DNA of 62,879 nt, the filler included, from Psammoneis japonica (lineage: Eukaryota): NCBI GenBank assembly GCA_008632985.1. It is 5 parts of 5 records of this genome, joined end to end, with 100 filler letters (N's around TTAATTAATTAA, not from the genome) between each part and the next. Parts side by side here need not be neighbours in the genome. Positions count along the whole stretch, not along the records: positions 1 to 12,665 come from QPGO01000509.1; positions 12,766 to 25,471 come from QPGO01000510.1; positions 25,572 to 38,274 come from QPGO01000511.1; positions 38,375 to 50,584 come from QPGO01000512.1; positions 50,685 to 62,879 come from QPGO01000513.1. One strand, written 5' to 3'. This document shows positions 2,815-62,879 of this stretch, in pieces (position 1 is the stretch's first letter; each line of letters opens with the position of its first letter). Below the pieces are notes generated by a model. The model ran no database searches. It was not told where the DNA came from and saw only the letters and a program-made list of their open reading frames with translations. The translations under genes and the position numbers were made by a program.

Positions 2815-3074
2815 CTCTTCAGAAAAAAAATGATGCGTTGCGTTGTGTTTTGGGGGGTGGAGATTTTATGGCGCGTTTCGCGCGGCGAGTGCGCGGAAAA
2901 GAGCAAAAGACGCATTTTTGCATAAAAAGTCTCCAAAATTGCTCGTTTCGCACGACCTCTGAACCACAACATTGACAACGGCCATGTGGACTTCTTGGGA
3001 CGGCCGAGATGAGGCCTGTCACACATGGCTTTTGTCTTGGACCTGTTGAGAGAGGAACTTTGTCGAATCAACTT

Positions 3075-3170
3075 CAGCAGCAGCAACAGCAACAACAGCA
3101 ACAACAGCAACAACAGCAGCAGCAGCAGCAGCAGCAGCAAGGTCAAGAACAACAACAAGAACAAGAACAA
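3075..3170 (+). repeat. (CAG/CAA)n microsatellite
   Basis: Directly visible cagcagcagcaacagcaacaa... array. Confidence 0.95.
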
Positions 3171-5339
3171 CCCACCCAAAACAATGGTGTGTCTCTTTGC
3201 ACATGCTTGCCTCTGCTGGGGCCCTTTGTCAAACACCATGAAACCCACATTCAGCTCCCTTTTGTGCCATCAGATTGGCAGCGTGCAAAGGCTCCATCCA
3301 GCAAGGTTTGCTTGCCAAAGTTTCAGCCCTCTCTCAATTTGCAGGGGGGCAGGAGCAAGAGCTCCTCTCTGCCTTCTTGCCCAGAATCAAGTGCGCGGGT
3401 GCATCTGTGCAAGATGGTGTTGAATCTTGGAGGACATTTGAATGAAGCAGGAGTCAACAGCTGTCAGGTGTGCAAGGTGTTTGAAGACTGTCTCACACCC
3501 TGTCTGTGGCATGAGGTTGAAATTGTGCAGGGGGTGAGCCACTTTCACTTCATGTGGTGACTCTTGTCATGGCCAGCTGGCACACTTGAGGCCCTGTCAA
3601 GCATTTTTGCACCAAGTGAGTGCTGCTCTGTGTTTGTGATGCTGACAAGTGAGCTGCAAAGAGTGGTGGATTTGTTGGCTGGACACAAGAACAATGAGCA
3701 ACAAGAACAACAAAATGGCTGAACATGACAAGCTGCCTTCAAATGTTTCACGCAAGGGGAAACAAGATGGCAAGGGTGCAGCCGCTTTTTAGAAGGAGAC
3801 AAGAAATCACTGTCCCTGGGTTCATCCCTGAGTGTCCAAGCCAGAGCTTGGGCCCAGGAAAGAACCTGCTGGAAATTGACCATGATGACAGGACACAGCA
3901 AAGACTCTCAGCCATTCACTTGACATCAGAAAGCAGATGACAAAGAGCATGCAAACTCTCTTCAACATGAGCACTCCAGTGGAGCAGCAAGAAAGTGCTG
4001 CTCACAATGTTTTTGTCTGTCTTTTACAAAATGACAACACGTCCTTGGGCAGCTTTCTGAGCTCAAGGTGGCACCGTTGGCCAATGAGGTCATGTTCTCA
4101 GCTTGGAAGAAGGCTCCCTCACATTTGAGTTTGGACTTTGGCTTGTGCATCTCTGCTGCAACCAAGCACTTTTTCAAAGTGTGTGTGTGACAAAAAAGAG
4201 AAAATTGTCATTTTTGTTGCAGTGACACAAAAAGTTTCCTTGCAACAACAATTTTTTCTGTGATGCATGAGAGCTGCAGATGCAGTTGCATCTGAGCACA
4301 TGCAGTGTGAGCAGTCATTTTGGGCATGTGGTGCCCTCAGTGTGGCGCTGTGCCACACTGATGCCACAATGCAGGTGGCAACACTGCAGCACTGCAAACC
4401 AAAACAGCGCAGTTCTGTGCAAACAACCATTGTCCCTGTTCATCTCCATTTGTCTCCATGCGTGCACTGGCAGCCAAAAATTTCTCACTTTGTCTCATGC
4501 ACCACAATGTGTGCAGTCACCAACTGTCTTGATTTGTTTCAAGTTGTCTCACATTGTCTTGCTGCTTTGTCCAGGAGGAGGAGAGGCTTCATCTGTCAAA
4601 TGTGACATGATGGGAGGATGCAGAGCACTGCTGAGAGAATCAACTGCAATGAAGAACACAAGTGGCGGTGCTGCAAAACAAGACGACAATGTTTTGCACG
4701 GCAAAGAGAACAGCGCTGCAACTCAAACATCTGTCAATGGCAAGCTCTTTGTTCAGTCATTCAATGACACTGCTCTCACTCCTGGATCTGTCAGCTGCAA
4801 AGCCAAGCTAAAAATTTCTGCTGTCTTCTTCACATTGCACCATTGAGAGCTGAGAGCAAGTCACTTGCTCTGCCAATGCAGAGGGTGTTCTTGATGTTCG
4901 TCACATTGCATGCCACAAATTTGATGTTTTCATGAGTCACGTGCAACTCTTCATTCTGGCATGTCGTCTGTCATGCACCATCTTGCTCAATGGACTGTGT
5001 CATGACCCGGTTCAAGATCCCACTCATGAAAGAGACACGAGTGTTGTGCACTCCATTTCTGTCTTCTTGCACAAGCCACTTCTGGGCCTCATGTTGCCTC
5101 AAACACTCACACTGCAACACCAGATGTTCAACACTTGAAGAGCTTTCACATCAGATTTGGTCATTGAAAGACAACTTGAGCTGTGTGAAAGCAAACACTG
5201 CTTTGTGTGCCCCAGACGGGGTGTCACAAAAGTGCAGAAAGAGCCAGCAGAAAGAAAGCAAGCTCTCCACAACTCTCCATCATTGCCTTTGAGGGCTTTC
5301 TGAAACACATGAGAGTGGCAAAAACTGGACCGCCATTGC

Positions 5340-5487
5340 CACAAGTGGGCTTGCAAGCATGGGATGCACACTCCCAAGACTTGTGATGAAGCAGCACAAA
5401 TTGACAAGACTGGCTGGGGCCGTCAATGGCAGAATGCCATCAACAAGGAAATGGGTGTTGTCAGGAAAGCTTTCAAGATCATTGACA
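5340..5487 (+). mobile_element. Decayed diatom-type Ty1/copia fragment (segment just before RT)
   Basis: Translates KHGMHTPKTCDEAAQIDKTGWGRQWQNAINKEMGVVRKAFK, resembling the K-Y-G..P.T..EA..ID......W..AI.KEM....F motif of diatom copia, with Y->H/C. Confidence 0.7.
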
Positions 5488-5506
5488 TTCTTGCTCTGAA
5501 GCTGCC

Positions 5507-6299
5507 GTGACTCACTTTGCTGCCATGACTGACTCCTCCACAACCAGAGCCATGAGAGTGGCTGGGAATGCTGGGGAGCCAATGACAAATGTGGTTGTAA
5601 GGGCATGAAAAAAGTGGCAAAGATTGCAGCTGTCCTTGAAATCCCCAGTGGTTGAAAGAGTTGGGCACCAGCACAGCTGTGAAAGTTTTGATCTCAACAA
5701 GAGTGCATTGACACAAGGCACAAAATGAGATGCCAACCTTCTGCAGACACAAGCACGACAAATCTGATTTAAGTGGTCATTTTCACCCAGGTGTCAATTG
5801 AAGAAAGTTGCAATGACTCACTCAAGCCAGCTCAAGTCATTGAAAAATGCAGCAGTGCCACCTTCTGCAGACACAAGCAAAGCAAATCTGATTTGCATGT
5901 TCTTTGCACCCAAGTGTCAATTGAAGAAAGTTGCAATGACGTGGCTCACTCTGCTGCCATGACTGACTCCTCCACACAACCAGAGCCATGAGAGCAGCTG
6001 CAAATGCTGGGGAGCCAATGACAAATGTGGTTGTGAGGGCATGAAACAGATGGCAAAGATTGCAGGCTGTCCTTGAAGTCCCAAGCAGTTGAAAGAGACA
6101 GTGTGCACCAGCACAGCTGTGAAAATTTTGATCTCAACAAGAGTGCATTGACACATGGCACAAAATGAGACCCCAACCTTCTGCAGACAAAAGCACGACA
6201 AATCTGATTTAAGAGGTCATTTGCACCCAGGTGTCAATTGAAGAAAGTTGCAATGACTCACTCAAGCCAGCTCAAGTCATTGAAAAATGCAGCAGTGCC
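5507..6299 (+). repeat. Tandem duplication (~434 bp offset) with an extra partial sub-repeat
   Basis: Copies start at 5507 and 5941 and both end in gaaaaatgcagcagtgcc. gttgTAagg (5598) versus gttgTGagg (6034). Confidence 0.9.
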
Positions 6300-8439
6300 T
6301 GTGAACATGGAATTTAAAAAAGGAGAGGATGTTGACCAACAGGCATTTCACCTCATGCAAGACACAAAGTGCAAAACACAGGACTTGCTCACCCCCATGA
6401 CAATGATCGCATTGTAGAAAGGAAGTGGCAGAGCAGAAGGCAGGGCAAAGCCAAACAAAGAAAGGTTGCAAAGCAATGTGGTGAGAGAAAGGGTGTGAGG
6501 TGCAAGCACAGGCAGCCATGACAACAATGCAAACAAATGACTCTGTTGCCAATCTTGATGCTCAGATGTGTTGACATGCAAGTTGAGAACAAAAAGAAAA
6601 CAGTGCTGCAGGGGCTGTGCAAAAGTGAGCAGAAGCCACACTGACCTCTTCTCTTCTGGCAGGCAAAGCTTTGTGGCAAACCCAGAATGATGAACAAGGG
6701 TTGCAGGACAATGTGAGGTCATGCCATGAAACAGAAGATCATGGAAACCAGCTGCCCAGCACATTGAAATGAAAGCCCAGCCACAACAGGACAATGTGAT
6801 GTGCAGATGGCAAGGGGCTGGATGTTGGGAGTGCTGGAAGAAATGACAAAGCAAAGAGCAGAAGAGAGCAGGAAACAGACAACAAGATGATTCAATGCAA
6901 AAATCCAAGCCATGGAACATGCAAATCAGATTGCAACCGCAGCACACAGCCAATGTGTGAAAGTGAGTTCATGAGATCAATTTGTGCAGCAAAGTCAGAT
7001 GTGGGCCACACTGCCAGCAAGTTGTTGCAAGTGCGCTGTTGTTTGGAACAAAAATCTGCAAGTCACAAGTTTCATTCATTGTCATTTCCTCCTCATCTTG
7101 TCAAGATCACATCATGTGCTGAAAGACCAAATTTTGTCAAGCATTGTTTCCTGCTTTGCCAGTTGGCTAGAATGTGGAAGGCCCTTTGACAAGAGCTGGC
7201 TGGCACTTGAGCTCTCACCAAGCACAGATCAACTCTAAATGAGAGTGACAAAAATTTCTGGACATGACTGGTGCCGATGTGCCAAAAAAGAAGCTGACGA
7301 TGCACACACGCTGCTTTTTTGCTCTTGCCATGGCATCACTGTGGTGTGAAATTTGGAAGCACACAGCCCAGAGCAACAGCACAACAGCTCTTTTAATTAA
7401 GTTGAGGAGCATTGACTGCACTTGCCATTTTTTGGCTTAAAACCACAGCAGCATGTTAAAAAACAGTGTGCAGAGTGCAAGGTGTTGCCAAAAGCTGTGC
7501 CTTGCCAGCCACATGCCACAACAGCTGAAGGCTCCACCCCACTGCACATGATGTTCTTGCCTCCTTCTAAGGCATCATCCTGAGCCATGCACTGCTTGAG
7601 AAGAAATGATGATGGCAAACTTGCTGCTGCATGTGAATGACCAGAGAGAGGCAGGTGCGTGGCTTGTGAAGAGGGCACACAGAGTGGAGTCACTGCCTTG
7701 GCTTGCCAAATGACCAACAAGGGGCAGGCAAGGAAAACATCATCTTGACTGCAGGAGTGAGCTGCACAATGGCAAGAGTGAGTCACAGAGTGATGGCTGA
7801 CATGAAACAACAATGCAGCACCATCTGGTGGCTCTGCACTCGCACCTGCAGCGGCACTTGTGCCAGCTCACTTTCCCAAGAGTCTGGTCAAGATGAGAAG
7901 AGTCTGAGAATGAGCAGTGCACACCTCATGTGCACCAGTGTCTGAGTGCTCAAGCCTCCAGCACAGCGAGGCTTGCTCAAGGAGACCAAGAAACTCGTTG
8001 TTGGGAGTGCTCGCAGACAGGGTGAGGCAAGGTGCAAGCATCAGTGCCACACTTGACACTGCACACACGCAGCACAGTGCTGGCGACTCTCTCTGCTCTC
8101 TCCAGCCAGTGGGAGCAGCTCTAGAGGTAGAGCAGCTGCTGGCAGAGAAAATCCAGAATCAGCAACACCTGGCTGGCACTCTACAGCACCTGTGCCAGTC
8201 GTGCAAATGTGGGTCCCGTAACCCGGAAATGTTCAGCAGTGCGGCAGTTCTCAAGCGCCAAGAGACAATGGACTTTGGAGATTCGGAAAAATTGGTCGCA
8301 CTGTCCATCCGTTGCCATGCATCCGAGATGAAAATCAGACGTGGTGCAAGCAGCTACCGGCAGTGTGGTGAATCATCGGCCGATGCTAAAAAGAAGACAC
8401 CATTGCACCACATCATCAAAAGAACATAGAGACAAGAGA

Positions 8440-9760
8440 TCACCATCATTAAGATCTACGTTGACAATCTAAAGCACTGGTTTTTAAACATGTGATTGCA
8501 TTGAAACCCCCAAGCAATCTCTCCACGAGTCGTCACCGGCAATCTCAAGATCCCGCCGCCGACGGTTGGTGTGTCACATGGGCTCCAACCACTGCCAGTG
8601 CTAGCAGCACAAAGGCTCCCACTGCCACCAGCACCTGCAGCAAAAGGCTCCAACCGCCTCCAGTGCCACTGGCACACAGGCACCCACCATCACCACTGGC
8701 TCCCACCGCCACCACTGCCAGCAGCACACAGGCTCCCACTGCCACCACTGCTGGCAGCAAAACACCTCCAATCACCACCACTGCCAGCAGCACGCAGGGG
8801 CACCAACAACACCAGACAAAAAGAATCCAACCACCTCGAATGCTGGTGGCACCCACCGCCACCAGATAAAAAGGACAGTGGTGCACAGGCTCCAACCGCC
8901 GCAAGCGCCAGCAGCTGTGCAGGGTACAGCCTCCCACTGCCACCAGTGCCAGCATCACACAGGGGCGCCCACCGCCACCAGATAGAAATGACAGCAGTGC
9001 ACAGGCTCCAACCGCCGCCAGTGCTGGCAGCCATGCAGGATGCAGCCTCCCACTGCCACCAGTGCCAGCATCACACGGGGGCACCAACTGTCACCAGATA
9101 AAAAAGATGGTTGTACACAGGCTCCAACATTTGCCAATGCCAGCAAACGCACAGGATGCAGGCTCACACTCTAGCAGCAAAAGGCTCCAACCGCCTCCAG
9201 TGCCAGCAGCACACAGGATCACACCGCCACCAGTGCTGGCCTTGACACACAGGCTCCCACTGCAACCACTGGCTAGCAGCAAAAAAGCTCCAACCACCAC
9301 CAGCACCAGCATCACACAGGGGTGCCAACCGCCACCAGATGAAAAGGACAGCAGTGCACAGGCTCCAGCCACCCCCAGTGCAAAAGCAGTGAAAGGCTCC
9401 TGCCGCCGCCAGTGCCACCACATTCAGCCCTGCCATGACATGTGGTCCAGTCCACAAATTTATGTTGAAAACAACACCGTCAGAGACGCCACCAATGAGA
9501 CAGATCTCTTTCAAACTTTCCAACACATTGTCACATCTAGAAGCATGTGCTGTGGCATGGCTGCGGGAATGTGCTGAAGACGCCGCCGCCGCATCATCAT
9601 CGTGAAAGTGCCGTTTGCGTTGGCCTCACGCAAATTTGAATGAGGCCTGATTGGCGCAACTGCCATTTCAGCATCGCCCCACGCAATGTTGCGTGCGTAG
9701 GATCCCACACAAGTTTTGTGAACGCATTGAAGGACAGGCCGAGTGCGACCATTTTTTCAA
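8440..9760 (+). mobile_element. TpA-depleted copy of the minisatellite-containing element found intact at 26.7-28.3 kb (opposite orientation)
   Basis: Internal gcaca(a/g)ggctcc(a/c)ac repeats. 9520-9720 aligns to the reverse complement of 26760-26950 (gccgccgccgcatcatcatcgtgaaagtgccgtt..gcaactgccatttcag). Confidence 0.75.
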
Positions 9761-10479
9761 ATCTCCACAGTCCATGGCCAAAGCAGCTGCGACTTTGAGG
9801 AAACACCACCCTGTCTTGATCTTGTCAAGCCATGAAGACAGAGAGAATGAGCACCCAGAGGGTGGAGTCACAGCATTTGACTTGGCACGCCCCTTGCGAT
9901 GATGTTTGTGCTTCCCACCACAACCACCAACACAACAGAGTGCTTGCTGTCAGTGCAATGTTGCAAATGACACCCAGCCCCCAATTCACCTGGAGCAGGC
10001 TGCAAAACAGTGGTGAGAGAAGCGGACACAAGACATGCAACAACAACGCAAGTGAGCACAAATGGGGGACTGGTGGGGACACTTGCCATGCAGCAGTTTT
10101 TTGCCATGGCAGTGGCTGAATTTTTTTTTGTGGGGTGCAGGTCGTGTGTGGGAGGAAATCTGACCGTTGAGTTCAAACCAAGTGTTGGGTTCAAATTTTC
10201 ATCAAAAAATGTCTGTCATGAACAAAACACAAAACTGTGCAATCTCAGGGATGTCAAATGTGCACAAAGCCAATGGACAGTTCATTGATCACAAGACACA
10301 CATGACGTCCACATGACGTGAGACTGTTGACCACTGCCCGGGATGGCAGCGACAGATTGGTGCCGCACTGTGTGCACCTTCTTCACCCTGGCACAAACAA
10401 AACAGAAGAAACAATCTCACAATGTGTGGGATTCCAACGGGGAAATGCGTGTTGAAATGTGAGACATGTCAAAAATTCA

Positions 10480-10780
10480 AAAAAACACTTGCCATTGATG
10501 CCATCACATCATTGCACACTTGCATGATGTCACGCACAATGCAGAAACAAGAAGAAAAAAAAAAAAATGACAAAACACTTGATGTGTTCCGCACACATGC
10601 AGAACAGGAGAAAAAACATTGCACAAAAAACTCCCAAGGCAGACTGCATGCAATGACAAAGGCACACACCAATGGCACAATGCAGGTCAAACAGCCACAT
10701 TGTTGACAAGGTCAACATCCATTGAGTGACGCCATTTGACAAATGACTCTCATGTGCAATTGGGAGGGGGGACGAATGCA
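10480..10780 (+). mobile_element. Gypsy integrase C-terminal relic followed by a polypurine tract
   Basis: KAHTNGTMQV...VNI resembles the GPY..(Y/H)TNGT..I..NIR integrase tail, followed by GGGAGGGGGGACGAA-TG. Confidence 0.5.
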
Positions 10781-11269
10781 ACATGCGTTGTCATGCACAT
10801 TTCACATGCATGTTCATTTGCCAAATGTCATTGTGTTTCAATTGTGCATCAATCATGGGTTTGCACAAAGGACACATTGATCACACAGAGTTGATCGGAT
10901 GTCTGAAATTGCAAACACAATTGATCGATGATGTCGACAAACTTGTGTGTCAATGTCAATTGTGTGCAGACAATCTGTTGTCACGACATTGTTCCCCGAA
11001 AGGCCTTTTGTCTGCAGAAGCAGCACAAAAGCTCCAGGCCATTGAGAACCTGATTGGAGAAACCCAAAATGATTGAATGCAATCCAATCTCACAATTTTC
11101 ACTTTTTGCACTTTGTTCCACTTTTGTTTGTGCTTGTTCTTCAAGCACAGTGCAGCTCGTCATCCTGGATCAAATGCGCGCATCATCCATGACAACAGTG
11201 GCAAGTTTGTTGGCTGGGAATTCAAATGTCATTGAATCAAGTGGGTGTTGATGATGCTCCAATGACACC

Positions 11270-11890
11270 TTGCAATCCTGTGACCAATGCCATTTGTGAA
11301 CGAACGCGACAGATGGTGGCCAACATCTTGCACACTGTGGTTGCCGCCAACCCTCCTTTGAATGCTTGACAGGCTGAGGCAACAGTGGAAGATGCCCTTG
11401 CTGCAGCAGCATCACATGCTTTACAATGTTCTCATTCAAGGTCAATGGGTGTCTCAAGTGGAGCTCTGGCATTCCAACATGACATGATTTTGGATCTGCC
11501 TGTTGCCACCGATCTTGCCGCAATCCAAGCCAACCGCCAAGTGTTGATTGACAAAAATCTGCAGAGACAGAGTGCAAAGCATCATTCCTGTGATTGTGCA
11601 GTCAGACAAGATGCAGCCACTGGTCAAGACCGTGGATCCCACAAAAAGGAAGGGGCGAGCTTGTGGCCCATGTTGAATTTCACAAGTCCATGCCAACAGG
11701 GCTGTTTTGGCACTGCCAGCACTGTGCATCCTCATTGAGCAGACTGGCATTTGTTGTGTGGCACCACATTGGAGTTGAGGGTTTCTTCCCAACATCTGGG
11801 TTCCCTTCTTCATGCACACCCAGTTTTGAATTTGAGTCAAGTGGCTCCAATGGTGTGCATGTTTCTTGCACCATGGAGGGGAAGAGTGAG
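11270..11890 (+). mobile_element. Decayed Ty3/gypsy integrase plus PPT
   Basis: NPVTNAICERTRQMVANIL..VEDALA..SSGALAFQHDMILDLP..D...I.ANRQVLIDKNL..SCDCAV (consensus NPQ.NAICER.HQ, SPG.L.F.RDM, DY.VG). PPT CATGGAGGGGAAGAG-TG at ~11872-11888. Confidence 0.8.
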
Positions 11891-12158
11891 CAAAATGGGG
11901 GCATGTGCTCAGGGCCAATGTGCCCTCTCTGACACGCGTGTGTTGACCAATGTGTCAGACATTCAAGGAGACCATCAGAAGTTCCCTGATTGGCAATTGA
12001 TGCTGATCGGGTTCCTTCTCTGTTCTCTCGCAACCATCCTTTTTACCTTTTTTCAAGTCATCTCAAGCCAGATCTTGCACTGCATGCACCATGCTGGCGG
12101 GGCGTGTGGCTGCAGTGCTCAACTTGCATGCTGCAACTGTGCACATCAGCGATGGAAG

Positions 12159-12625
12159 CTTTGCTCACGCTCCCAATGAAGACTTTGCAGCAATTGATTG
12201 CGCGCAATGCTTTTTTTCTTTGATGGGGGGACTGGTGGGTGCAGGTGCACAACAGCTCGAAAGAATCCTTTGGCGGTCACTTTTGCATCTCAAGCGACCT
12301 GGCAGGCTTTTCCTTCGAGAACAGGATGACAACTACAGCAGGATGACGACTTGCGGACAACTTTGCTTGCGCTCCCAATGAAGACTTTGCAGCAATTGAT
12401 TGCGCGCGATGCTTTTTTTGTTTGATGGGGGGGGACTGGGTGCAGGTGCATGACGGCTTGAAAGAATCCTTTAGCGGTCACTTTTGCCGTACGTCTCAAG
12501 CGACCTGGCAGGCTTTTCCTTCGAGAATGGGACGACAACTACAGTGGGATAACAACTTAGGTGCGCACAATTGACACCTTCGAGAATGGGATGACAACTA
12601 CAGTGGGACAACGACTTATGGACAA
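12159..12625 (+). repeat. 202-bp tandem duplication plus shorter sub-repeats
   Basis: ctttgct..gctcccaatgaagactttgcagcaattgattgcgcgc at 12159 and 12361; cttcgagaa..gacaactacag repeated three times. Confidence 0.85.
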
Positions 12626-12665
12626 TTGACACTAACGTCACTGTCTTCTACCAAAGAACTAGCTT

Positions 12666-12765
12666 NNNNNNNNNNNNNNNNNNNNNNNNNNNNNNNNNNN
12701 NNNNNNNNNTTAATTAATTAANNNNNNNNNNNNNNNNNNNNNNNNNNNNNNNNNNNNNNNNNNNN
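12666..12765. other. Assembly gap with artificial TTAATTAATTAA linker (also 25471-25571, 38275-38374, 50585-50684; plain N gap 45782-46336)
   Basis: The same stop-in-all-frames 12-mer is centred in ~100-N runs four times. Confidence 0.97.
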
Positions 12766-13795
12766 CTGTCTGCGGCGCACCAGAGAAGTCACCACTCACT
12801 TGACAATCAGCCCAACTCAGGTTGTTGGACAGATGACCCTTGTCTTCAACACAGCCAAAATGAGGACACAAGCAGAGCAGCGTGGTTGATGAAATGCAAT
12901 GAGAGAAAGGCTGCAATTTGTTGGTGTCATGCAGCAACTGCATCGCGTCGATTGCTTCACAACAGTGCAGTGGCACCTGTGTTCAGCGCACCACAGGGCC
13001 CATCACAGACTCTCTGCTGCACTGGCCACTGGAGCAGAGTGCAGTTTTTTGAGGTCTGTGCTGCTGCAGCCTGTGCTCATGTCGAAGGCCAGACAGCTGG
13101 GCTTTCCCGTGCGTGCGTCGAGCGCGTTGCATCATGCAGCACACGCTGCATGCCGTGTGTGCGTCATGCGCATTGCATCATGCAGCACACACTGCTGCAT
13201 CATGCCAGCACCGCACCGCTGGCATGCATGCTGCGCAGTGCAAAACGGCACATTTGTTGGTCAGGCATCGACGCTGCTTGATGCCTCAGCCAAGTCATTG
13301 TTCGAGACAGTTTCTCAAGATGTTCCACCCAATTGGATGACAGCAAACACAACACTTCGAAGGGACTGTCTGAAACAGTGATTCTGGGGGCACACACGCG
13401 ATTTGGTGAGAAACGGCAGGTTGATCTGGTTGCCGCTTAGAGAAGGCTGTGGAGGGAGTTGGAAGCTCGGCCTTGCGCGGTGTGACCGCACGTTGAGTCT
13501 CGCTCACGAATCGTGATGATGACACTTTTCTTTTGTCACAACGTTGACGACCGCCATGGTCCATTTGGGCAAAGAGGTGGATTTTACTAAAAAATGGCTC
13601 CTGCGTGATTTCTACGGCGTCCCCACGCTAAATGGGAACAGATCCGCGATTGCTTGGTCGTGTGCAGCACAATAGATGATGAGTCGCAGATTATTGGCAC
13701 TGTCACCTTTATTGTTGAGTGCCACCCCCGGATGCCAAACGCCATTTTCCCGGTTTGATTTTTTGTGATTTGTGGCTGTTCGACGAAACTGGAAG

Positions 13796-50684: not shown

Positions 50685-52360
50685 TTCTCAACTGTCGGCC
50701 ACTCGCAATCTAGCCCAATCACCCGCTCACCTTCTGGTCTCTGCTTTGTGAGGTCTCGCAGAGCATCAACAGCCGTGTCCATTTCGGCGTTGCTGTGTGG
50801 GACACGAATGTCTTCAGGGTTAATTTTGCAGACAGGGAATTCATCGTCAGCAGCGGAGGTGGTTGCAGTGCAGCTCTTGTTGTGCAACTCTTCAAATTCT
50901 TGCAAGGATGGAATCATGTCAAGAAGGAAAGCTTTGTCGGCACCAGGTTTGTCGGTGAATGCAAGCTCCACCGGATCCTGCCCGTGCGCTTCAACTGTCT
51001 TCAGAAAGGCGGACATTGCATTCCGCATCTGGTCATGGCCATCGGACACCACGTGGTGTTGCATTCTCATCTCACCAAACTCATTTGCACAGGTGACAAG
51101 CCCCTTGAATGTGGGGTTGCTGTGGCATTGACAAAGGTGCTTCGCCTCTTTGAATGAAGCATCAATGTGCAGGCGACGAGCTCCCCTCTTCTTCACCTCT
51201 TTGTCCAAATGCGGGCGAGTGGACTTGTGATGCTCCTTGTGGACATGAGCGTGGTGCTTCCCAGTCGGGACAAGTCCGTCGTGTCCCGATTTGTCAGAGA
51301 ACGGTGAGCACATGCTTCGCCGAACTGTTGGATTCAACATCCTCTCACGCTTGCACTTGTTCTCCCGTTTGATGTGTTCGCGGCAGTGCTTTTTGGAGTG
51401 CAACTCAAGAAGCAGGCTGGAAAGGGCTTCCGGGCACATTCCTTTGTCGTGCACTGGACGCATGAGGTCTGGCACTGTTTCCTCATTCACTCCGGCCCTG
51501 TGAGCAAGGAAAGCAGGAAACTCATCGCCGCATCCATGAGGAAGCAGTTCAGTGGATGCGGGGTTGCAGCCCACAAAAGTGTGTTGTGTCACGTCATCGT
51601 CACCTTGCCTTCATTGTTCCTTGCAGCCATGACAAATGCATTGGGCTGTCATGGCACAGTGGCACGTGTTCAGTGCAATGACTCGTCTTGCACAGTGATT
51701 CGTTTGACATCCGTGAACACCAACTCGATGGTTCGATCCGCATGAGACACAAAATGGAGTGGCTTCTGGACCCCACCTGATGTGAGGCAGCCAAACAATG
51801 ATCTCTCAGTAGCATGAGGGCTCTTCACAATCGACACCAAGCTTCTGACAGGTCTTCCGTGCATCTGTGACGGGAATTCTCCAATCACTTTCTTTTGGCT
51901 GCTCCAAGAGCCACCTTCTGTTCAGAGCCCCACCGAGATTCCCAGTGGTTTCTTGCCTGAGTTGATCACGAACTGCCCTCAGGCATTTGAGCATGGTCCC
52001 GCCAGGTCCACTGATGTCTTCATCCATGAGATCATCACACTCAGCAAAATCATCCAGCTCTGCCACCACAGGAGGCAAGTCCTCAATCCTCAAAGAGGGC
52101 TCGTCTCTGTCTGGGTCTTGCTGTCCTTCTTCTTCATCCACATCTTGAACTTCTGGTGGATTGTGTTCCTCTGCCCTGGGAGGAGTTACTTGAGTTCTCA
52201 CAGCGCCGCCATTCAGAGCCGCAGCCATGGCCTCCCTGCCCTTCTGGGCCTTTTTTGCAGCCATTTGCCTCCTCCTCTCTGCTTTCTCCTCTGGAGTCAA
52301 AGCTCGCCTCTTCTTCCTTTGTTTCTTATCCTTTGATCCTTTCTTTCTGCCTGGTGCCAT
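50685..52360 (-). mobile_element. Decayed putative transposon gene (DUF6729-like region) running into a DEDD 3'-5' exonuclease motif I
   Basis: EFPAFLAHRAG..LMRP..LLELHSK, HIDASFKEAKHL..FKGLVT..NEFGEMR, then RVIGLDCEWP at the gap. NLS-like N-terminus MAPGRKKGSKDKKQRKKRR. Domain naming is from recall only. Confidence 0.55.
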
Positions 52361-53302: not shown

Positions 53303-55669
53303 ATGTCATCGTCACAGCAAGCGACCCGTCGAGCATCGGCACAGAACGCCTTGGAAAATTACTCGGAGGGTGTGCAGACAATGGTGCGAGAGCAAGTGGA
53401 AGATCATTATTCGAGCCGTTCGGTCGCATCCTTGACACACAAGCAGCTCTTGGTCGTGAGCAAGGGCATGGGACTCGTACCTGTGCATGCCCCGTCAGTC
53501 TTGTCCTTTCTCGAAAGACAATGTCATGAAACTTCCGCTGCGAAAAATTGCTGCAAAACCGTTATGCTTGATGAAGAAGTTGAGATCTCTAGAGAAAAAA
53601 TCGCCTCTCTACACTTGACGGCTTCTTCAATGGAAGAAGTCTATGAATTGACTAGAGACAGCGTTGCTCTATCCTATGTTCAGAGCGTACGAAGCGACCA
53701 TGATCGTCTTCATTATCACACCCCGATTTGTCATGCGATCCGAGGACACTACGGAGTCAAAAACAACAAAGGTTTTCCACGCAAGGCAGGTATATGGCTA
53801 GATCAACTCGCCAAATACCAGAACCCCGACTGCCGGGACGGTGCCTGGGGGAAAATGGGTAACATACCGTACTTGAACTTGCCTGTCTTGGCCGCCTTGC
53901 CCATGTGCGTCTTTGTTGATTCTGCCACTGCCCGACGGGCCACTATCCCCCTCCTAGACCGACGCTTTCCACTAGATGCCTACTTGAGAGGAGCGGTACG
54001 GCTACTCGCTTACACCTTTCCCCGAACTGGTGGGCTGCAACGGCGTGAAGATGGCCTGCCTCGAAAACATCCGGAATACCCATGGACAACGATAGGAGGC
54101 TCTCAGAACGTTTTTGTTGCAGAGTTGCTCAAAGTTTTGGATTCCAACATCATTCAATATGCGCTGGGATGCTGCGAAGAACTTTACGGCTCGATGAACG
54201 ATAATGGCGTGCCCAACTTCCCCATTTTCTCGCCCTGGTTTCGGACATGGCCGATGGTAGAACGGTCCATGGGGATGTCTTTCAAGGGCCTTTATATGGA
54301 TTCATCTTCCTGGACGGTCGCAGCACTTGTTGTGGCCATCATGGATGTGCTATCCAGTGCCATGTATGATGTCGTCTTTACCGAACGCGCGCCAGAGGAG
54401 AGCAAATTGCTTTCAGTTGTGGAAAACCTCTTCGATGACTCCATGAAGAATGGGCTTTTTGATTCGCTTTCTGACGAGCTAGTACACTTTCGAGATCTCA
54501 GCCCACTTCATGTTCGTGAGTTTCTTGATTTGCTGGACGAAGGCTACGAGACATTACTCAGGACGGAGTTCAGGTCTTCCAAACCTGTCGACTACGAGCA
54601 TATGGTCCAGATGCTCGCAGCGAAATGGAAGGATCGCGGCGCTGAAATTGATCTGCTTAAAACATTCCCGTGGACATCCGAATCTATGAACGGAATGTGT
54701 CGTGGTCAAGACATTTTGAATCGTCTTCGGTCCAGCTTTATCACCCACGCGGACATATTTTCGGTAGCGGACAAGGTGGACATTGCGTTGGGATTGATTT
54801 GTGGGCTGGGTGGATCCAGCAACTTGGATCGTCTTGAGGCGGCGCTCTTTTTCCAAAGAAAAAGTAAGCCATTGTCGTCGTCGTCGTCCGCGACCCCATT
54901 CGTGTGGGCGCACGAGAGGAACCGAATCCGCGTTGCGGAGGCTGCCCTTTGTGTTGGAAATGATCGTCTGGAAAATGATGTTCCACTTTTTACTTTGGCA
55001 CCACTTGTCAATCTCCAGACACTTGGCGTGTGGATGAAAGTACATTTGAGCTGGGATGAATGTCGCATCGAGGCTGAGCAGGCGGCGCTAAAGACTCGAA
55101 TATTAGGAATGATGAACCAAGTTGGCGGGTATCTCTGCGTCATTCACTCTGACATGACCTGTCAGTTCGTCGTCGTAAGCAATCGGGAACTTCAAGAGGC
55201 GTTGCAATCGTTGTCACACATACCGACAGGCTCCCGCTCGCCAGGCAACCCACTTCAACTAGAAATCTACGGCAGCCTTCACTTTACGACATTTTGTGAT
55301 AGCGTTGGAAGCACAGTTTGTTTCCTCTGGTTGAAGGAAGAGCTGGTGGTCGACAGTGGCATCAAGCGACTTCGTGAGAGAACGCAATTCACGCACCAAT
55401 TATCTTGGTGCAGACGCGGACCAACCGACGACAAAGCCAGCACAGGGGTGACCAACCGCGTCGATGATTCCGGATTAAAATCTTTCCAATCTGAACTGTC
55501 CACAATGGAAGAGTCAGCTTTCCGGGGCTCAGCTCCCGTGGTCTTCTGGCGTGAGGGTCATCTCGCATGCGGGTTGAAAATGGAGACCGTGATTCAATTA
55601 TTTCGAGACGGAGACTTCGAAGATTACGACGTGCGACCCGTAGTGAGACGATCAAGTGCTCCGTGGTGA
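53303..55669 (+). CDS. Hypothetical protein, 788 aa
   Basis: Uninterrupted long ORF of normal composition; no domain recognised. Confidence 0.8.
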   Translation: MSSSQQATRRASAQNALENYSEGVQTMVREQVEDHYSSRSVASLTHKQLLVVSKGMGLVPVHAPSVLSFLERQCHETSAAKNCCKTVMLDEEVEISREKIASLHLTASSMEEVYELTRDSVALSYVQSVRSDHDRLHYHTPICHAIRGHYGVKNNKGFPRKAGIWLDQLAKYQNPDCRDGAWGKMGNIPYLNLPVLAALPMCVFVDSATARRATIPLLDRRFPLDAYLRGAVRLLAYTFPRTGGLQRREDGLPRKHPEYPWTTIGGSQNVFVAELLKVLDSNIIQYALGCCEELYGSMNDNGVPNFPIFSPWFRTWPMVERSMGMSFKGLYMDSSSWTVAALVVAIMDVLSSAMYDVVFTERAPEESKLLSVVENLFDDSMKNGLFDSLSDELVHFRDLSPLHVREFLDLLDEGYETLLRTEFRSSKPVDYEHMVQMLAAKWKDRGAEIDLLKTFPWTSESMNGMCRGQDILNRLRSSFITHADIFSVADKVDIALGLICGLGGSSNLDRLEAALFFQRKSKPLSSSSSATPFVWAHERNRIRVAEAALCVGNDRLENDVPLFTLAPLVNLQTLGVWMKVHLSWDECRIEAEQAALKTRILGMMNQVGGYLCVIHSDMTCQFVVVSNRELQEALQSLSHIPTGSRSPGNPLQLEIYGSLHFTTFCDSVGSTVCFLWLKEELVVDSGIKRLRERTQFTHQLSWCRRGPTDDKASTGVTNRVDDSGLKSFQSELSTMEESAFRGSAPVVFWREGHLACGLKMETVIQLFRDGDFEDYDVRPVVRRSSAPW

Positions 55670-56738: not shown

Positions 56739-59700
56739 CCCCCCTTGAACCGAATGAGGGAAGATGAGAAGGAGCTCATGACAACATGTGTGCAGGTAGG
56801 CGCCATAGGGCACGGTCGACCATAACCCAAATTTTGTCTGCACATTGAGTTTTGGTGAGGCAGTCCGCTAATTGACTTTCCGCGGGGACCCAAACAAGTA
56901 AGTGATGACCGAGTCGCTGCCCTTCGCGGACACATTGGAAGCGTCGCTCAACATGTCGGGTTCGTCGAGTTTGTTGGTCGTTTTGGGCCATTTGGACTGC
57001 GGCTTGGTTGTCCAACATGAGGATCATGGGAGCAGTGGACAGGCACTGGGAGTCAATGGAGCAGTGGCGAGTGCCAAGGAAGGTGAAGTCGCAGGCCAAC
57101 ATGCGCAGGTGAGCAACAGCCATGGCGCCAGTGCAGGCACCCATCCACTCGGATTCGGCAGCGGACATTGCGACAGGGGTTGGGACAGTGGAATTGGCTT
57201 CCACTGTTGCCCCATTGAAGTAGACCATAAATCCAACGGTCGACTTGGCGGTGTCCGGACAATCCTGCCAGCTGGCATCGGCGAAGACCACAAATTCAGA
57301 ATGACTGACATTGTGAGCTTCGCAAATCGCGTGAACAGGGCTCGCGGTAGGATCAGAATAAAATTTGATGGCGAGGTCTTGATGTTTGCAGAGACAGCCA
57401 AAAAGGTGGACGAGAGCATCAAAATCCTTCACACCAGGGTTGGTGCAAGCCTTTGCAAGTTTGCAGGTGATCCAGAGAATGTCAGTGCGAGTGTTGCAGG
57501 CAAGATGAAGGATGGAGCAGACAGCGGATCGAAAATGGAGACCAGGATGCTTGTTCGCGATTTGCTTGGATTCGGCGGCGTCCTTGGGTTGATTCGCCTT
57601 GGAGCACACATGGTCAACGGGGGCTGGGGTGCCCTGAAAGCTGGGGCTGCCCCAAGGCGAGGTGGGAGCAAGGAACCGCTTGAGGAGATTGCGCACATGT
57701 CGATGTTGGTCGAGAGAGAAGGAGCCGTCGGAACATCGGTGAGTGTGCATCTGCAAGAACCAGGTGACGTCACCGTTGAATGTGATGTTGCACCTGGATC
57801 GCACGAGGTTCTCAAAATCCTTCTCGACTCTGTCGTGAGACCCAAAGCAGATGATGTCATCCGTGTAGAAAATGAGCTTGAGACATGAGCCGTCGGGGAA
57901 GTGCTTGGCAAAGAAGGTGGGATCTGCTTTGGAATTGGTGCATCCTTGGGCAAGTGAAAATTCGGAGAGCTCGGTGGACCACCAAAGACTGCTGCGGATG
58001 GTCCCGCACATGCCTTTCTTGAGATGAAGGGGTGCACCAAAGCATTCAGCATGTTCAGGAAAATGTTGCTTCAGAATCGGGTCGAAGCAAACAAAGAGGC
58101 GGCCGCGAGCAGGGGCTTGAAGGCAAGCACCGACAAAATCACCATTCTTGACGTGTTGTTTGGCCTTTGCTGCAAAAGCTGGGAAGAGCTTGATGGCACG
58201 AGAGGATGCGTTTGGTGACCAATTGTCGTCATCGGCTGATTTGCGTTGCATGTCGCCGCGCGCACAGTGTCGAGCCTTGAGTTTCTCCAGAGAGCCGTCA
58301 GATTTCTCTTTGGCACGTAGAGCAAGTGTGGCGCCGATGATCTCATCGTCTGGACGGGGGACATTCATGAAGAGCGAAGGCTTCATTGTCCACGATGAGG
58401 TTCTTGAGCTCAGATCGGACGGCACGAAGCCAGGCGTCACGAATCGCAGGAGGTTGTCTGAGGATGGCTCGAAAAGAGCAGGGAATGGGCAAGCAGTCAT
58501 CAACAGGAATCGAAGAGGTGGCCTGGACGGCTTCCAAGGCCTGTTGCAAAGGATCTGGGCATTTGTGCCAATTGCAGTCAGGCCAAGGGGATTTCGACGG
58601 AGGCGCTGCATGCAGATTCCATGGCGAGCGAGTCGTCGAAGAGAGTTTGTTCGAGAAGATCGACTGGGGGGAGTGGAGGAGGTCACAGCGTAGAGTTGCT
58701 CCTCGTCCGCGAAGCGTGCGGAAGTGCGGAGGCCAGCGTTGGTGCGAGTGGATCATCTGAGACCAGTTGCAGCGGGTGCAGGGGATGGTGGCTCTGAATC
58801 GGATTCATCAGATTCCGGAGGCGCTTCAGTGAGAGTAGAGGGAGAAGGGGGTGAGTCAGCATCAAGGAAATCTTGAATGGCACCCGCATGTTCATCCACA
58901 GGATTCTCGTTGCATGTCTTTGGGCCGGAGGCGTTGTTGGAGATGTTCCGGATCGGGAGTGCGCCAGAAAAGGGGACGTGGTCGTGCACGAGTGATGATT
59001 CGAAAAGTTCGTCGAAGACAGCGTCATGCGTGACAATCAGATTCTTGGTGCCGATGCCCTCAGGAACATGGATGAGGCAACCAGCCTGGTTTGGTGCAAA
59101 ACCGACATGAATGCCACGAGATCGACGTTGAATCTGTTGTTGAGTGGTGGTCGGGCAACGAGTTTCCGGGTTGAGAGGTTGGCATCTGTCGAAAGTGACG
59201 GGACATCCGAAGACCCGAAAATTGCCAATCTTTGGAAGTCTGTTTGAATGCATGGCAGTGCGGTGCAGCCAGTGAGCTGTCAGGGAGCCGTGTGCCTTTA
59301 GCTGGGAGGACGTTCAGGATGGCGATGGCATGAACGAATGCATGATGGCAGAAGTGTGCCGAGAGTCTTGCGTTGACAAGAAGGCAACGAATCATCTTGC
59401 TTGCGACTTGCCACATGCGTTCCGCAACCCCGCTCTGCTCCTGGTGACATGGAGCGGCGACTTCGACCTTGATTCCATTGTCTTCACCAAAGGCAAGAAA
59501 TTCGGAGGACAGAAAACATGTTGCAGAGTCCGCGCGGACGAAGTTTGTGTCTTGGATTTGTCCCTGGGATTGTACTTTGGTCATCCATGATTTAAAAGCG
59601 GCGATGATGTTGCCAGATGATGGGCTCTCAAGGCCACGAACACCGCAGCAGTGTCCTTTGTGGGTTGCCAAAAAGAGGTGGGTGGGGAAAAGACGTTTTT

Positions 59701-62700
59701 GGGGTGAGTGCGACTGTGTGAGGGTTGGGAATTATGTCCACAAACACACGTGAAAATGTGTGTGTTGGTTCAGTTGGGTCACACTTAACGCGGTTGCGCT
59801 TTCGGGAGATGGCGATGCGCGCGTTGTCGAGATGGTCGTCAGTCCCGGGGGCAATGTGGCAGTCGCGCCAAACTTCGCCAACTGTGCCCGCCAAAAGGCT
59901 CTGAGAGGAGCGACAACCGAAACGGTGACCTGCAAGGTCAAGGTCGATTGCATGTGTCGTTGGTTTCGATGAGCCTTGGGCGTTGGTTGCTTCCGTCAAC
60001 GGGGGGTCAGAAGTGGGTTCTGCAGCAGCGGTGGCATCGTGACAGGAGCGCTTGTGATGGAGAATCAGGAAGCTGAATGTGTGTCCGTCGCCAAAATCAA
60101 GTGTCGTGATGTTGGTGGTGATTCGGACATTGAAGAGTTCATTGGCCATGAAGGAGGGCACCGAAAACAAGTTCCGGTTGAGGCCGGGGATGCGACAGAC
60201 GCGATCGAGAACAAGGTTGACCGGATGTCCTTGGTCGTCTTGAAAATGGAGGGTGACGGATCCAACTTTCGTGGCATGAATGGTGGTGCCGTCTGCAACA
60301 ACAACAGGGACGTGACAGGGGGTGCTGTCATCAAGTGAGTCATGACGAACGAAATGAGAAGAGGCACCAGAGTCGACAAACCAACTGCTGATGTCCGTGA
60401 GGTCGGAGTCGCGGGGCAGTTGGTGAGGTCGGCACTGGTTGGGATCGTCGGCCATGCATGCAACTTGAACGTGACAATCAGCGGTGTCGCATGAGAAACG
60501 GGGGATGGTGTCAACCGCATCGATAGAGTCACAGCTGAGATCAGATGTGATGGAGTCGTCATCATCGTCAGAGATTGCAGTGTGCCTGGATGCGCAAGAT
60601 GCCGTGGTGAAAGCGTCGTGGAAATCGAAGCAGACTGGTGACACCGCGGGAGAGTTCCCGGGGGGCGGTTCATCAAAAGGGTGGGCCGCAGCATCATCCG
60701 GTTCGCATGGGCGATGGATCAAAGACGGCACAGTGGATGATGAACCCGCGCTGGAGTCGCAATCATGATGGGCTAGAGGAGGTGGACCAGAGGAGGTCGA
60801 GCAGGCCGATGAAGGTTCATTGCCATCAGGTGTGCATGAGCGACAGAGCAAAAGCGGCATGGCAGATGAGGAATCTGTGCTGGAGCTGCAGTCGTGGTGT
60901 GCAAGAGGCGGAGGACCAGCAGAGTTCAAGTTGGTGGAGAAAGTTTTGTTGCCATCAATCGAAGAGGTGTCATCGAGGAGGTCCTGGAGAGTGATGGCAG
61001 GCATTGTTCCATGAGTGGAGGAAGATGCGATCGAGTCACTCGTGGAGTGGCAGGCCGATGAGTCGTCATCAAAGGAGACGTGGCGTGGTTCCAGGGTTGG
61101 GATAGAGTCTGAACAGGAGGGACAACAAGGGTGAGCATCCTCCATGTCAGCTCGAGCAGCACAGAAAATGATTTGGTCCTTCGGTGGAGGTGCCTTTGCG
61201 CGGCAGTGCATGGTGGGTGCAGTGGCTGTGAGAGCGGTTTGTTTTGAGTCCTTTGCGAGTTCGGGACAGTCGGGACGAAGGTGCCCCTTTTTTCTGCAGT
61301 GATGGCACATGACTTTGCTCAGGTCGTGAGGAGGTTTGGCAGCAGGTTGATCCTTGGGTGTGCCCTTCTTCAGATCGCGGAGCCGAGAGCGACATTCGGA
61401 GGCGTTGTGGTTGCGTTTTCCACAGCAGTCGCAGATCTCGGTGGCGTTAGGTTGGTTTGGGCGACGTTGCTGCTGTTGCTGTCGTTGTGCATTCCGAGGA
61501 GCGCGTTTGACGGCAGCAAGGTGAGCATGGTTGTTGTGAGAGCGGGAGCGGGAGCCATGCGAGAGCCGATCACGATGCTGTTGGTTGTGATGCTGCTCGT
61601 CGATGTCATAGAACGTTTGCTGGATGTCCTTGAACCGGGGAGCGGTGGCAGAGGAGAGACGAGCAGCAGTTCGAAATTCGGATTCGAATTGCTTGATGGC
61701 AGCATCGCAGCGGGGATGGCTGCCCATTTGGCTGAGAAAATGGGTGCTGATTTCCGCATCAGTCTTGACTGGAAGGCCGGCGTTCTTGCAGCTCCGGAGT
61801 TTTCGCTCAAACCGTTGGATGAAGCTGCTGGCGGACTCGTCCGAGTTGCGAAAGACTTGCAGGTGGTCGTTTGAACAGCAGTTGCTGTGTTCCTGAGTGA
61901 TGGGCACACAGCGCAGCTGGAGTTCTTCGAGAGCAAGTTTGCCGGAACGAGATCCAAGGTCAGAAATGTCAGATTGGTGTGTTGCATCCACATGCGTCCA
62001 GAGGAGAGCACAGAGGGCGTTGTCGGCATGGTCTGGAAGTGGGCGGAGAGGGACAGAGGGAAAATCATTGAGCAGACCATTGAATTCTGGAAAAGATGCA
62101 AAGGTCCCACGCAAGTCATTCAAGAATGCACAAAACTTTTGTCGTCGCGTGTGCGGATTCTGATGGTGCTTCAGAGTGCGCAAATTTGTGTGAGATGCAT
62201 GCTTCATCAGAGAATTCGACAAGGATTCCGAGGTGCGCTCGTTTGCAACATGAGAGAAAACAGTGTCGTTGACTGATGAGTGATGAGCGGACGGGGAAGC
62301 GGGGTGTGGTCGTGGGGTGAGGGCAAGGCGGAACATGAGTTCCAAGTGAAGGGACTCGGCGTCGCGCATCATGTCCTGAAAACGACGAAGTGCAAGAGTG
62401 CTTGCTTCGCAAGCAGGGTGTCGACAAAGGAGGCGCTCGAAAGACATTTTCGCCGAATCGACAGTGTCACAAAGCTCAACGGCACGTTCATTCTCACGAT
62501 GGAAAAACGGTGCGAGAGCTTGTTGGGTGTCGAAGAGAGCCTCGAAGGTGACGAGACGAACCTGGACGTTGATGTCATTGTCGACGGACAGATCAGGCGC
62601 GTCAGAGGTGTCGGACGAAGCTGGAGCAGGTGAGTCAACTGCAGGAGTGTGAGCAGGAGAGGCAAGAGCCTTGTCAAGTGCTCCATCCATTTCGTTCAAC

Positions 62701-62879
62701 ATGGGAGCAACAACATCAAAAAGTTGAGTCGCAGAGGTTGAAGATGATGGGTCGACATGGGAGAGAGCAGGAGTGGCTTGATCCGTTGGAGATGAAAGCG
62801 GGGGGAATTCCTCAGGGACCCCAGTGGTGCATGACATTGGGTGGCGGGTCGTCAGCAATGGGTTGAGACCCCCCTTGAG
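56166..62879 (-). mobile_element. Ty1/copia LTR retrotransposon (gag-PR-IN-RT-RH), near complete, TpA-hypermutated
   Basis: Two CCHC knuckles (CDCCGKRNHNASEC, CHHCRKKGHLRPDC); protease WFVDSGASSH; integrase VFVD..RADS..QEQSGVAER; RT LKARHCARG, YTDD; RNase H FADASW, AESE, DNQAA, TRHVERR, QLADCLTK. Integrase lies upstream of RT. Confidence 0.96.

Follow-up and report, generated by a model that had tools for sequence, protein, structure and literature searches.

TpA is nearly absent from sharply bounded blocks of a Psammoneis japonica genome window, probably through regional TpA-to-TpG/CpA hypermutation

Five contigs of the Psammoneis japonica assembly GCA_008632985.1 (QPGO01000509.1 to QPGO01000513.1), joined into one stretch of 62,879 nucleotides that we call the window, carry genes of ordinary composition next to large blocks from which the dinucleotide TpA (TA hereafter) has almost disappeared. 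We consider it highly probable that silenced selfish or junk DNA, including a Ty1/copia retrotransposon and a satellite-like array, has been rewritten here in place by a regional hypermutation of TpA to TpG or CpA, a process that looks to be of the same kind as that recently reported in Bigelowiella natans. A first-pass annotation of the window had remarked that TA is almost absent from large blocks and ordinary in nearby genes; ratios of observed to expected counts (o/e), calculated per kilobase and per block, confirm this far beyond chance.

Per kilobase, TA o/e amounts to 0.53-0.83 in the genic parts (1-2950, 14-16 kb, 21-33 kb and 52-56.7 kb) and to 0.00-0.11 in most kilobases of 3-8, 10-12, 17-20, 33-52 and 57-62.9 kb, the latter showing TG and CA ratios of 1.5-2.3 (1.3-2.0 by block). 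When pooled, the hypermutated blocks (2950-8100, 9701-12330 counted to 12665, 12766-13437, 16396-20351, 33011-40900, 40901-50584, 50685-52186 and 56900-62879) make up 37,158 of the 61,972 non-N bases of the window (60%) and contain 102 TA, against 2,388 expected by base composition and 1,433 if the genic ratio of 0.60 applied, a deficit for which the Poisson probability underflows. Genic TA o/e is 0.58-0.61 versus 0.00-0.06 in the blocks, where the longest TA-free runs extend up to 2,502 bp. Compared with genic dinucleotide fractions, the blocks lack 2,498 TA+CG and hold 2,173 extra TG+CA, with shifts of at most about 0.011 in the fractions of the remaining dinucleotides; the TA and CG lost are roughly balanced by the TG and CA gained. 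Roughly 90-97% of the expected TA is gone, so that the process came close to completion. The blocks and the unmutated DNA used for comparison are the following, with the strand given where one applies and with expected counts derived from base composition:

2950-8100: hypermutated block D1; 15 TA against 342 expected (o/e 0.044); CG 0.15, TG 1.97, CA 1.80
8101-9700: partly mutated stretch D1b, built of 116-bp tandem units; TA o/e 0.31, CG 0.46
9701-12330: hypermutated block D1c, with a TA-free run at 9698-11422; TA o/e 0.064 and CG 0.42 over 9701-12665
12766-13437: hypermutated block D1d, with which the second contig opens; 0 TA against 35 expected; CG o/e 0.60
16396-20351: hypermutated block D2, with graded edges; 14 TA against 242 expected (o/e 0.058); CG 0.22
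33011-40900: hypermutated block D3, with the spacer at 38275-38374 inside; 27 TA (3 of them in the spacer) against 532 expected; CG 0.29
40901-50584: satellite-like array with a 554-N gap inside; 12 TA against 647 expected (o/e 0.019); CG 0.46
50685-52186: hypermutated block D3c, ending beside a genic region; 3 TA against 83 expected; CG 0.57
56900-62879, minus strand: copia block, a Ty1/copia element that continues past the window end; 18 TA against 305 expected; CG o/e 0.90
366-2923, minus strand: MCM4 gene (MCM, MCM_OB and MCM_lid Pfam matches), the normal-composition control adjoining D1
20352-33010: unmutated comparison region with genes, tandem copy 2 (20733-21684), the paralogue at 23200-24094 and a 171-bp array at 27.1-28.0 kb; TA o/e 0.60, CG 0.98

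The contigs are separated by spacers of the form N44-TTAATTAATTAA-N44 at 12666-12765, 25472-25571, 38275-38374 and 50585-50684, and the gap in the satellite-like array lies at 45782-46335; contig order and adjacency across spacers and gap may not be real. Each of these artificial spacers has stops in all six frames and contributes three TA.

The copia element, in which gag, Pol_BBD, an integrase remnant and reverse transcriptase (RT)/RNase H can be recognised (RVT_2 and Pol_BBD Pfam matches), offers a clean test of direction, TA being part of the tyrosine codons (TAY). Tyr fills 3 of the 637 translated positions in one of its two long reading frames and 1 of the 1,084 in the other, with Cys and His at 4-6%; in 16 relatives of 42-47% identity, one of which is named as Fragilaria crotonensis, Tyr amounts to 3.0-4.7%. 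When the RT/RNase H part is aligned with MAFFT, Tyr is shared by at least 75% of the 16 relatives in 24 columns, and at these the window has Tyr once, Cys seven times, His six, Phe five, Trp and Leu twice each and Arg once, other conserved residues being kept in 18-77% of columns. Across the whole polyprotein, as aligned by tblastn, the 39 conserved Tyr columns are occupied by Tyr (1), Cys (12), His (11), Phe (6), Arg (3), Trp (2) and others (4), so that Cys (TGY) or His (CAY) stands at 23 of the 39. Examples of such replacements are GAYLQA to GACLQA, KGIYGL to KGMCGT, LLYLAYNT to ILHLACNT and FGYL to FGCL. The change runs from TA to TG or CA, that is from A:T to G:C, on either strand; the earlier suggestion that mutation of this kind had inactivated a transposon is thus borne out by the copia Tyr columns together with the paired copies described below. 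Matches of the element to one relative (P0124) are split into five overlapping pieces, which points to at least three frame changes and therefore to a dead copy. Because the conversion of TA to TG or CA creates no stop codon, long false reading frames survive in the blocks. Related copia loci retrieved in a metagenome scan with an alignment had TA o/e of 0.48-1.00 in all 56 cases (a metagenome scan with a single RT protein returned no relative), and each of the 150 best representative relatives has at least 1.67% Tyr, with a median of 3.5%. The loss of TA and Tyr is not a trait of the copia family.

The same direction is found outside the retrotransposon wherever a mutated copy can be aligned with a less mutated one. 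In three such pairs, aligned with lenient scoring of transitions, the 69 TA of the less mutated copies correspond to 9 TA, 27 CA, 20 TG and 13 other dinucleotides in the mutated copies (47 of 69 being CA or TG), other dinucleotides being kept at 42-80% and CG at 43%. The pair 8.3-9.9 kb versus 26.6-28.2 kb accounts for many of them, since 49 TA of the copy at 26.6-28.2 kb appear as 5 TA, 24 CA and 11 TG in the other. Between the tandem copies at 19765-20734 and 20733-21684 (955 bp), five TA of copy 2 are TG or CA in copy 1 and none shows the reverse, and for CG there are six copy-2 sites with CA or TG in copy 1 and two in the opposite sense. The individual sites listed by the first-pass annotation hold up on inspection: 20136/21090 reads CA versus TA, 20217/21172 and 20278/21233 read TG versus TA, 20345 and 20347 versus 21301 and 21303 read TGTG versus TATA, and 5599/6035 reads TA versus TG. 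Its longer comparisons do so too, the four TA of 45617-45781 being two CA and two TG in 39993-40157, with TA converted likewise to TG or CA between 18.4-19.2 kb and 23.2-24.1 kb and between 8.3-9.9 kb and 26.6-28.2 kb. When the satellite families are aligned in register, both TG and CA occur in 22 columns, whereas seven other classes of double transition, taken as controls, yield 1-7 columns each; therefore an ancestral palindromic step was hit on different strands in different copies. Along the copia element, Cys (sense-strand A to G) and His (antisense) replacements number 12 and 11 and fall into 12 runs, against 12.5 expected by chance, with no strand-coordinated clustering and no long single-strand tracts seen, which indicates that both strands were hit independently.

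The few TA that persist in the blocks are not a random sample. Among 88 surviving TA, TTAA occurs 29 times (7.4 times its genic share) and CTAA/TTAG 19 times (3.1 times), and ATAT together with ATAC/GTAT is absent where about 20 would be expected (chi-square P = 7e-42). In the polarised pairs ATAT is mutated in 5 of 5 instances, ATAC in 9 of 9 and CTAA in 4 of 7. From the surviving TA we infer a mutability order of TAT > TAC > TAG > TAA, or TAY > TAG > TAA.

The TA-free sequence is present in sequencing reads as well as in the published contigs. Public reads comprise three runs of one sample from one study, and the run used here (X1) contains 0.88 of the sampled words. Its separate assembly yielded a 6,148-bp contig with a word depth of 60.6 that covers 13543-19686 with no substitution and four one-base insertions, and that spans 3.3 kb of D2 at a depth equal to that of the flanking genes on the same contig. 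The absence of substitutions over 6,148 bp makes a base-calling artefact unlikely. Independent reads showing TA at these sites had been proposed as a sign of such an artefact; the read assembly, which comes from that one sample, instead reproduces one TA-free block. Within 19.7-21.7 kb, some parts have coverage from short or paralogous read contigs only. Single extra bases in the read contigs relative to the window, at 14864, 14987, 15063, 16380 and other positions, suggest small indel errors in the window assembly, and over 12766-13471 the sole substitution against the X1 contig is at 13191, with A in the window and G in the reads (CA versus CG, a CpG-type difference that lies within hypermutated DNA).

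The limits of the affected DNA inform on how it is chosen. Block edges, at 2923, 16395, 20352, 33010, about 52187 and 56899, are sharp and lie next to active genes. The edge of the copia block falls about 120 bp inside the pol reading frame, TA being normal at 56776-56899 and beyond, and the edge at about 20352 lies within tandem copy 1, of which only the left part is mutated, copy 2 remaining untouched. The 171-bp tandem array at 27093-28007 has normal TA (TA o/e 0.70 over 27001-28000) and its relative at 8.3-9.9 kb is mutated. D2, in turn, is probably single copy, because its word depth equals that of the flanking genes on the same read-assembly contig. The description of the process as repeat-targeted in the sense of repeat-induced point mutation (RIP) consequently finds weak support or none, with tandem copy 2 and the 171-bp array spared, D2 apparently single copy and the copia edge inside pol; these same four observations are better accounted for by a regional target that resembles a chromatin domain than by the sensing of homology, and targeting would accordingly depend on chromatin state. 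Since satellites and a probably single-copy block are affected, and edges occur inside a duplicated segment and inside pol, the process acts in place on resident DNA. The spared array also shows 33-, 98-, 129- and 146-bp periods and lies within an open reading frame (ORF) of 259 amino acids with a weak HTH_23 match.

A second layer of change concerns CpG. The sliding-window comparison of TpA and CpG ratios put forward in the first-pass annotation, run within the window, reproduces the TA loss and adds that CpG is low too in three of the four block groups, with CG o/e values of 0.15-0.6 across the D1-D3 groups, satellite included, against 0.90 in the copia block. Conversely, the kilobase 27001-28000 combines a CG o/e of 0.30 with its TA ratio of 0.70. 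CpG loss is a process separate from TpA loss, since neither accompanies the other in the copia block or in the 27-28 kb array. A single enzyme for both losses was rejected on the same grounds, given that copia lost TA and kept CpG and the array did the opposite. The simplest reading of the CpG loss is deamination of 5-methylcytosine (5mC) in methylated repeats. Diatom transposons are CpG-methylated via DNMT5a, and many diatoms carry the RID-related DNMT4, according to the sections consulted of PMC9998398. Decay of 5mC was also considered as the whole explanation and discarded, as it cannot remove TpA and the TpA loss is larger and present without CpG loss in copia. The earlier argument that neither RIP nor 5mC decay explains the disappearance of TpA is thereby upheld.

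The first-pass annotation had known of no description of a process of this type, a statement that is now outdated: a 2026 preprint (Mettrop et al., bioRxiv 10.64898/2026.01.13.699255) reports, in the sections consulted, TpA-only hypermutation of integrated viral DNA in Bigelowiella natans. In mutation-accumulation lines of this organism, one integrated giant-virus region and one virophage region together received 231 of the 302 nuclear mutations; among these 231, A to G or T to C changes numbered 230, every one of them at TpA, and mutation there proceeded in bursts at about 1e-7 to 1e-6 per site per generation, about 1000-fold above background, in some lines only (10.64898/2026.01.13.699255). 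The same sections describe 124 TpA-poor, CpA+TpG-rich clusters in the genome, with TpA-poor genes enriched in reverse transcriptase and transposase domains, and suggest that an ADAT2-like enzyme, acting in defence, deaminates adenine in DNA; they contain no mention of diatoms, of CpG or of context beyond the dinucleotide (10.64898/2026.01.13.699255). Besides this preprint, the open-access PubMed Central (PMC) and bioRxiv literature yielded no report of the same signature in diatoms or other taxa.

As far as those sections go, both systems convert TpA alone to TpG or CpA in discrete regions beside normal DNA, leave CpA+TpG-rich sequence and have been proposed as defences; TpA-poor genes there are enriched in reverse transcriptase and transposase domains, and one block here is a copia element. 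They differ in that the host is a rhizarian there and a diatom-like stramenopile here, that a rate was measured there whereas a footprint is what the window provides, that TA o/e is 0.02-0.06 here compared with 0.45 in the viral region there, and that the identified targets are copia and satellites here, with CpG loss superimposed in most blocks, and viral insertions there. What the window adds is a second lineage, near-saturation, a retrotransposon and satellites as targets, the CpG-loss layer and the apparent TAY > TAG > TAA motif. Fungal RIP resembles the present case as an irreversible, in-place, dinucleotide-specific transition hypermutation of selfish DNA in sharp contrast to genes; however, it changes C to T (mostly CpA to TpA) and so creates the TpA that is destroyed here (TA o/e about 0.05), and it senses duplication and mutates both copies, whereas tandem copy 2 and one array are spared in the window. 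Decay of 5mC shares with our observations the CpG loss and part of the TG and CA gain in D1-D3. APOBEC3 and ADAR enzymes likewise inactivate selfish elements by base editing, and ADAR favours U before the edited A, but APOBEC acts from C to T or G to A on single-stranded cDNA and ADAR acts on RNA, unlike the changes of resident non-retroelement DNA on both strands independently that are seen here.

The reading that we favour can be put together as follows. The blocks would be silenced, selfish or junk DNA, comprising one copia retrotransposon, a satellite array and sequence that cannot be annotated, in which a regional hypermutation acting at the DNA level would turn the A:T pairs of TpA into G:C, with TpG or CpA resulting according to the strand hit. 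Coding capacity would be destroyed without stop codons, through the replacement of Tyr by Cys or His; the process would prefer TA before a pyrimidine and would halt at sharp edges beside active genes, and a second, separable process would remove CpG in three of the four block groups. For the chemistry we tentatively prefer that a TadA/ADAT2-like enzyme deaminates adenine within DNA. What the window itself shows is the composition, the direction of change, the action in place, the edges and their backing by reads; guidance by chromatin state, a role in defence and the chemistry go beyond it. It is further tempting to speculate, with chances that we would put somewhat short of even, that diatoms and chlorarachniophytes share an ancient chromatin-guided DNA-editing defence by which TpA is removed from the double-stranded genomic DNA of transposons, satellites and integrated viruses, with a preference for TAY and the capacity to saturate. 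Several points weigh against the favoured reading. What has been observed is the trace of past mutation in a single stretch of 63 kb, and the window carries nothing bearing on an enzyme, the sameness with B. natans being one of signature only. Most satellite columns are nearly uniform, for example with 10 CA to 1 TG, so that much of the satellite change is older than the amplification or has been homogenised. Some repeats escape, namely the array at 27.1-28.0 kb and tandem copy 2. The identified targets are one copia element and one satellite array, the ORFs of the remaining blocks having no real Pfam match; only one block thus has an identifiable selfish origin, so that a defence against foreign DNA is something that we infer. 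The context preference is read from surviving TA, some of which may be new ones derived from CA or TG, and on that baseline the excess of TTAA is 3.9-fold and not 7.4-fold. Finally, the runs may be the assembly's own source and contigs hide rare variants, so that the support is at the level of reads and does not amount to that of an independent isolate.

The main alternative, which we regard as unlikely, keeps the regional footprint and moves the target to the T of TpA: a TET/JBP-type dioxygenase would oxidise thymine in silent chromatin to 5-hydroxymethyluracil or 5-formyluracil, which mispairs with G and gives T to C. Since TpA is self-complementary, A to G after T and T to C before A look alike, and the context is equally readable in these terms as ATA > GTA > CTA > TTA, that is RTA > YTA. 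Modified thymines of this kind have precedents, 5-hydroxymethyluracil being enriched at TpA in dinoflagellate DNA and base J marking silent repeats in kinetoplastids, and 5-formyluracil does mispair with G. On the other hand, no sign of such bases in diatoms appeared here or in the literature consulted, and the B. natans authors favour, as a proposal, an ADAT2-like deaminase. Much less probable is an origin in RNA, by which double-stranded RNA of transposons would be hyper-edited from adenosine to inosine next to U by an ADAR-like or ADAT-derived enzyme and copied by reverse transcription into new insertions. Such enzymes favour U before the edited A (10.64898/2026.01.13.699255, in the sections consulted) and one block is indeed a retrotransposon. 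Satellites, the probably single-copy paralogue-derived block and part of one tandem copy are nevertheless affected as well, the copia block ends within pol, whose last ~120 bp have normal TA like the DNA that follows, and none of the 56 related loci or the 150 related proteins carries the signature. The 3' preference of ADAR is moreover the reverse of the order deduced here, with pyrimidine above G. To this it can be added that the B. natans mutations arose de novo in resident single-copy DNA, according to the same preprint sections (10.64898/2026.01.13.699255).

Three further explanations retain only a marginal probability in our assessment. A sequencing or assembly artefact, whether a modified base mis-called in repeats or polishing errors that replace TA, could draw on the single-base insertions by which window and read assembly differ and on the derivation of all runs from one sample, but it is largely refuted by the separate X1 assembly, with a depth of about 60 and no substitution in 6,148 bp including 3.3 kb of TA-free DNA; besides, a miscall specific to one strand would lead to mixed calls and to new CG at the same frequency as TA was lost, whereas CG is also low, and the amino-acid replacements and frame changes of copia represent real decay. 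Just as improbable is that the blocks were always TA-poor, as foreign or selfish DNA under selection against TA or UA for the avoidance of nucleases or restriction. TA avoidance does occur in many genomes and most blocks lack identifiable ancestry, yet conserved Tyr residues have become Cys or His, including those of the YGL and LYxG stretches of RT, the relatives are TA-normal, and pairs within the window show TA in one copy and TG or CA in the other. Finally, mismatch repair or gene conversion biased in late-replicating or heterochromatic DNA might fix G:C at TpA mismatches with no dedicated mutator, a scheme to which we give hardly more credit. The slightly higher GC of some blocks (0.55 in copia) would agree with it, and in bacteria the frequencies of oligonucleotides are known to be altered by short-patch repair. 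The same blocks, however, lose CpG to TpG and CpA, opposite to a repair that favours GC, and a near-total, dinucleotide-specific loss with a preference for the 3' base would be hard to obtain in this way; the B. natans rate, 1000-fold above background and in bursts confined to some lines in the preprint sections consulted (10.64898/2026.01.13.699255), argues in the same sense.

If TpA-to-TpG/CpA hypermutation is here the same process as in B. natans, it would constitute a genome defence in at least two branches of the stramenopile-alveolate-rhizarian (SAR) group, including the diatoms, which are ecologically dominant and genetically tractable. Carried to completion, such a process eliminates all tyrosine codons, spares only one of the three stop codons and raises the local GC; the long false reading frames that it leaves can mislead gene callers, and transposons become hidden from homology-based annotation. 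A second lineage also turns the search for the enzyme into a comparative problem, as the enzyme, a natural adenine (or thymine) editor of nuclear DNA if the above holds true, could be sought among the genes shared by footprint-carrying species and missing from species that lack the footprint. A natural A:T to G:C chromosomal editor would be of interest to base-editing research, and sharp edges by the promoter of an essential gene offer a readout of heterochromatin boundaries written in the sequence itself.

Some features of individual blocks deserve mention. D1 starts about 100 bp upstream of the start region of the MCM4 gene, the last preceding TA being at 2923 and the next at 3790. No recognisable coding content and no real Pfam match were detected in the ORFs of D1, a long CAG/CAA (poly-Gln-like) tract at its start, at 3075-3180, being the source of its only, spurious, Pfam matches. 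D1b has an opposite-strand relative in the unmutated array at 26670-28154 (a purine/pyrimidine-alphabet match over 1,558 columns), and TA is back to normal from about 12334 to the end of the first contig. D2 has a TA-free run at 17394-19267 and contains diverged paralogues of 23200-24094 and 20731-21684. A tblastx comparison of 18.2-19.4 kb with 22.9-24.4 kb gave short matches in several frames, which denotes similarity at the nucleotide level and no shared protein. ORFs at 23018-23962 on the plus strand, within the unmutated paralogue of part of D2, resemble leucine-rich repeats by eye, e.g. LDLSHNDIGERGISALLEAV; D2 may therefore include a hypermutated duplicate of host sequence. The left edge of D3, at 33010, is abrupt and D3 has no Pfam match; the units of the satellite-like array measure about 112, 121, 300, 466 and 589 bp, and the right edge of D3c lies between 52187 and 52327. 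In the non-copia blocks all 92 ORFs of at least 110 amino acids lack a real Pfam match, with only low-complexity poly-Q noise, and nine long relic ORFs compared by tblastn with the window matched only themselves or their own repeat copies. Neither a deaminase nor a viral gene was present among the Pfam matches of the window ORFs.

As for the genes of normal composition, the MCM4 gene has a TA o/e of 0.60 and a CG o/e of 1.09. A 276-residue piece of its product has best matches of 72-80% identity, the named ones (72-76%) coming almost all from diatoms, among them Mayamaea, Epithemia, Nitzschia, Fragilariopsis, Skeletonema and Cyclotella, the unnamed ones reaching up to 80% and no match being near 100%; this supports the assumption of the first-pass annotation that the organism is a diatom. 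An alpha/beta-hydrolase gene (Abhydrolase_5) of normal composition at 21725-22741 on the plus strand sits between the unmutated repeat copies. Two long plus-strand ORFs in normal-composition DNA, at 53303-55669 (788 amino acids) and 30226-32529 (767 amino acids), have no Pfam match at E <= 0.01. The region at 28349-28808 forms a near-perfect palindrome, whose two 225-nt arms are 94% complementary and separated by 10 nt, with a single N at 28595.

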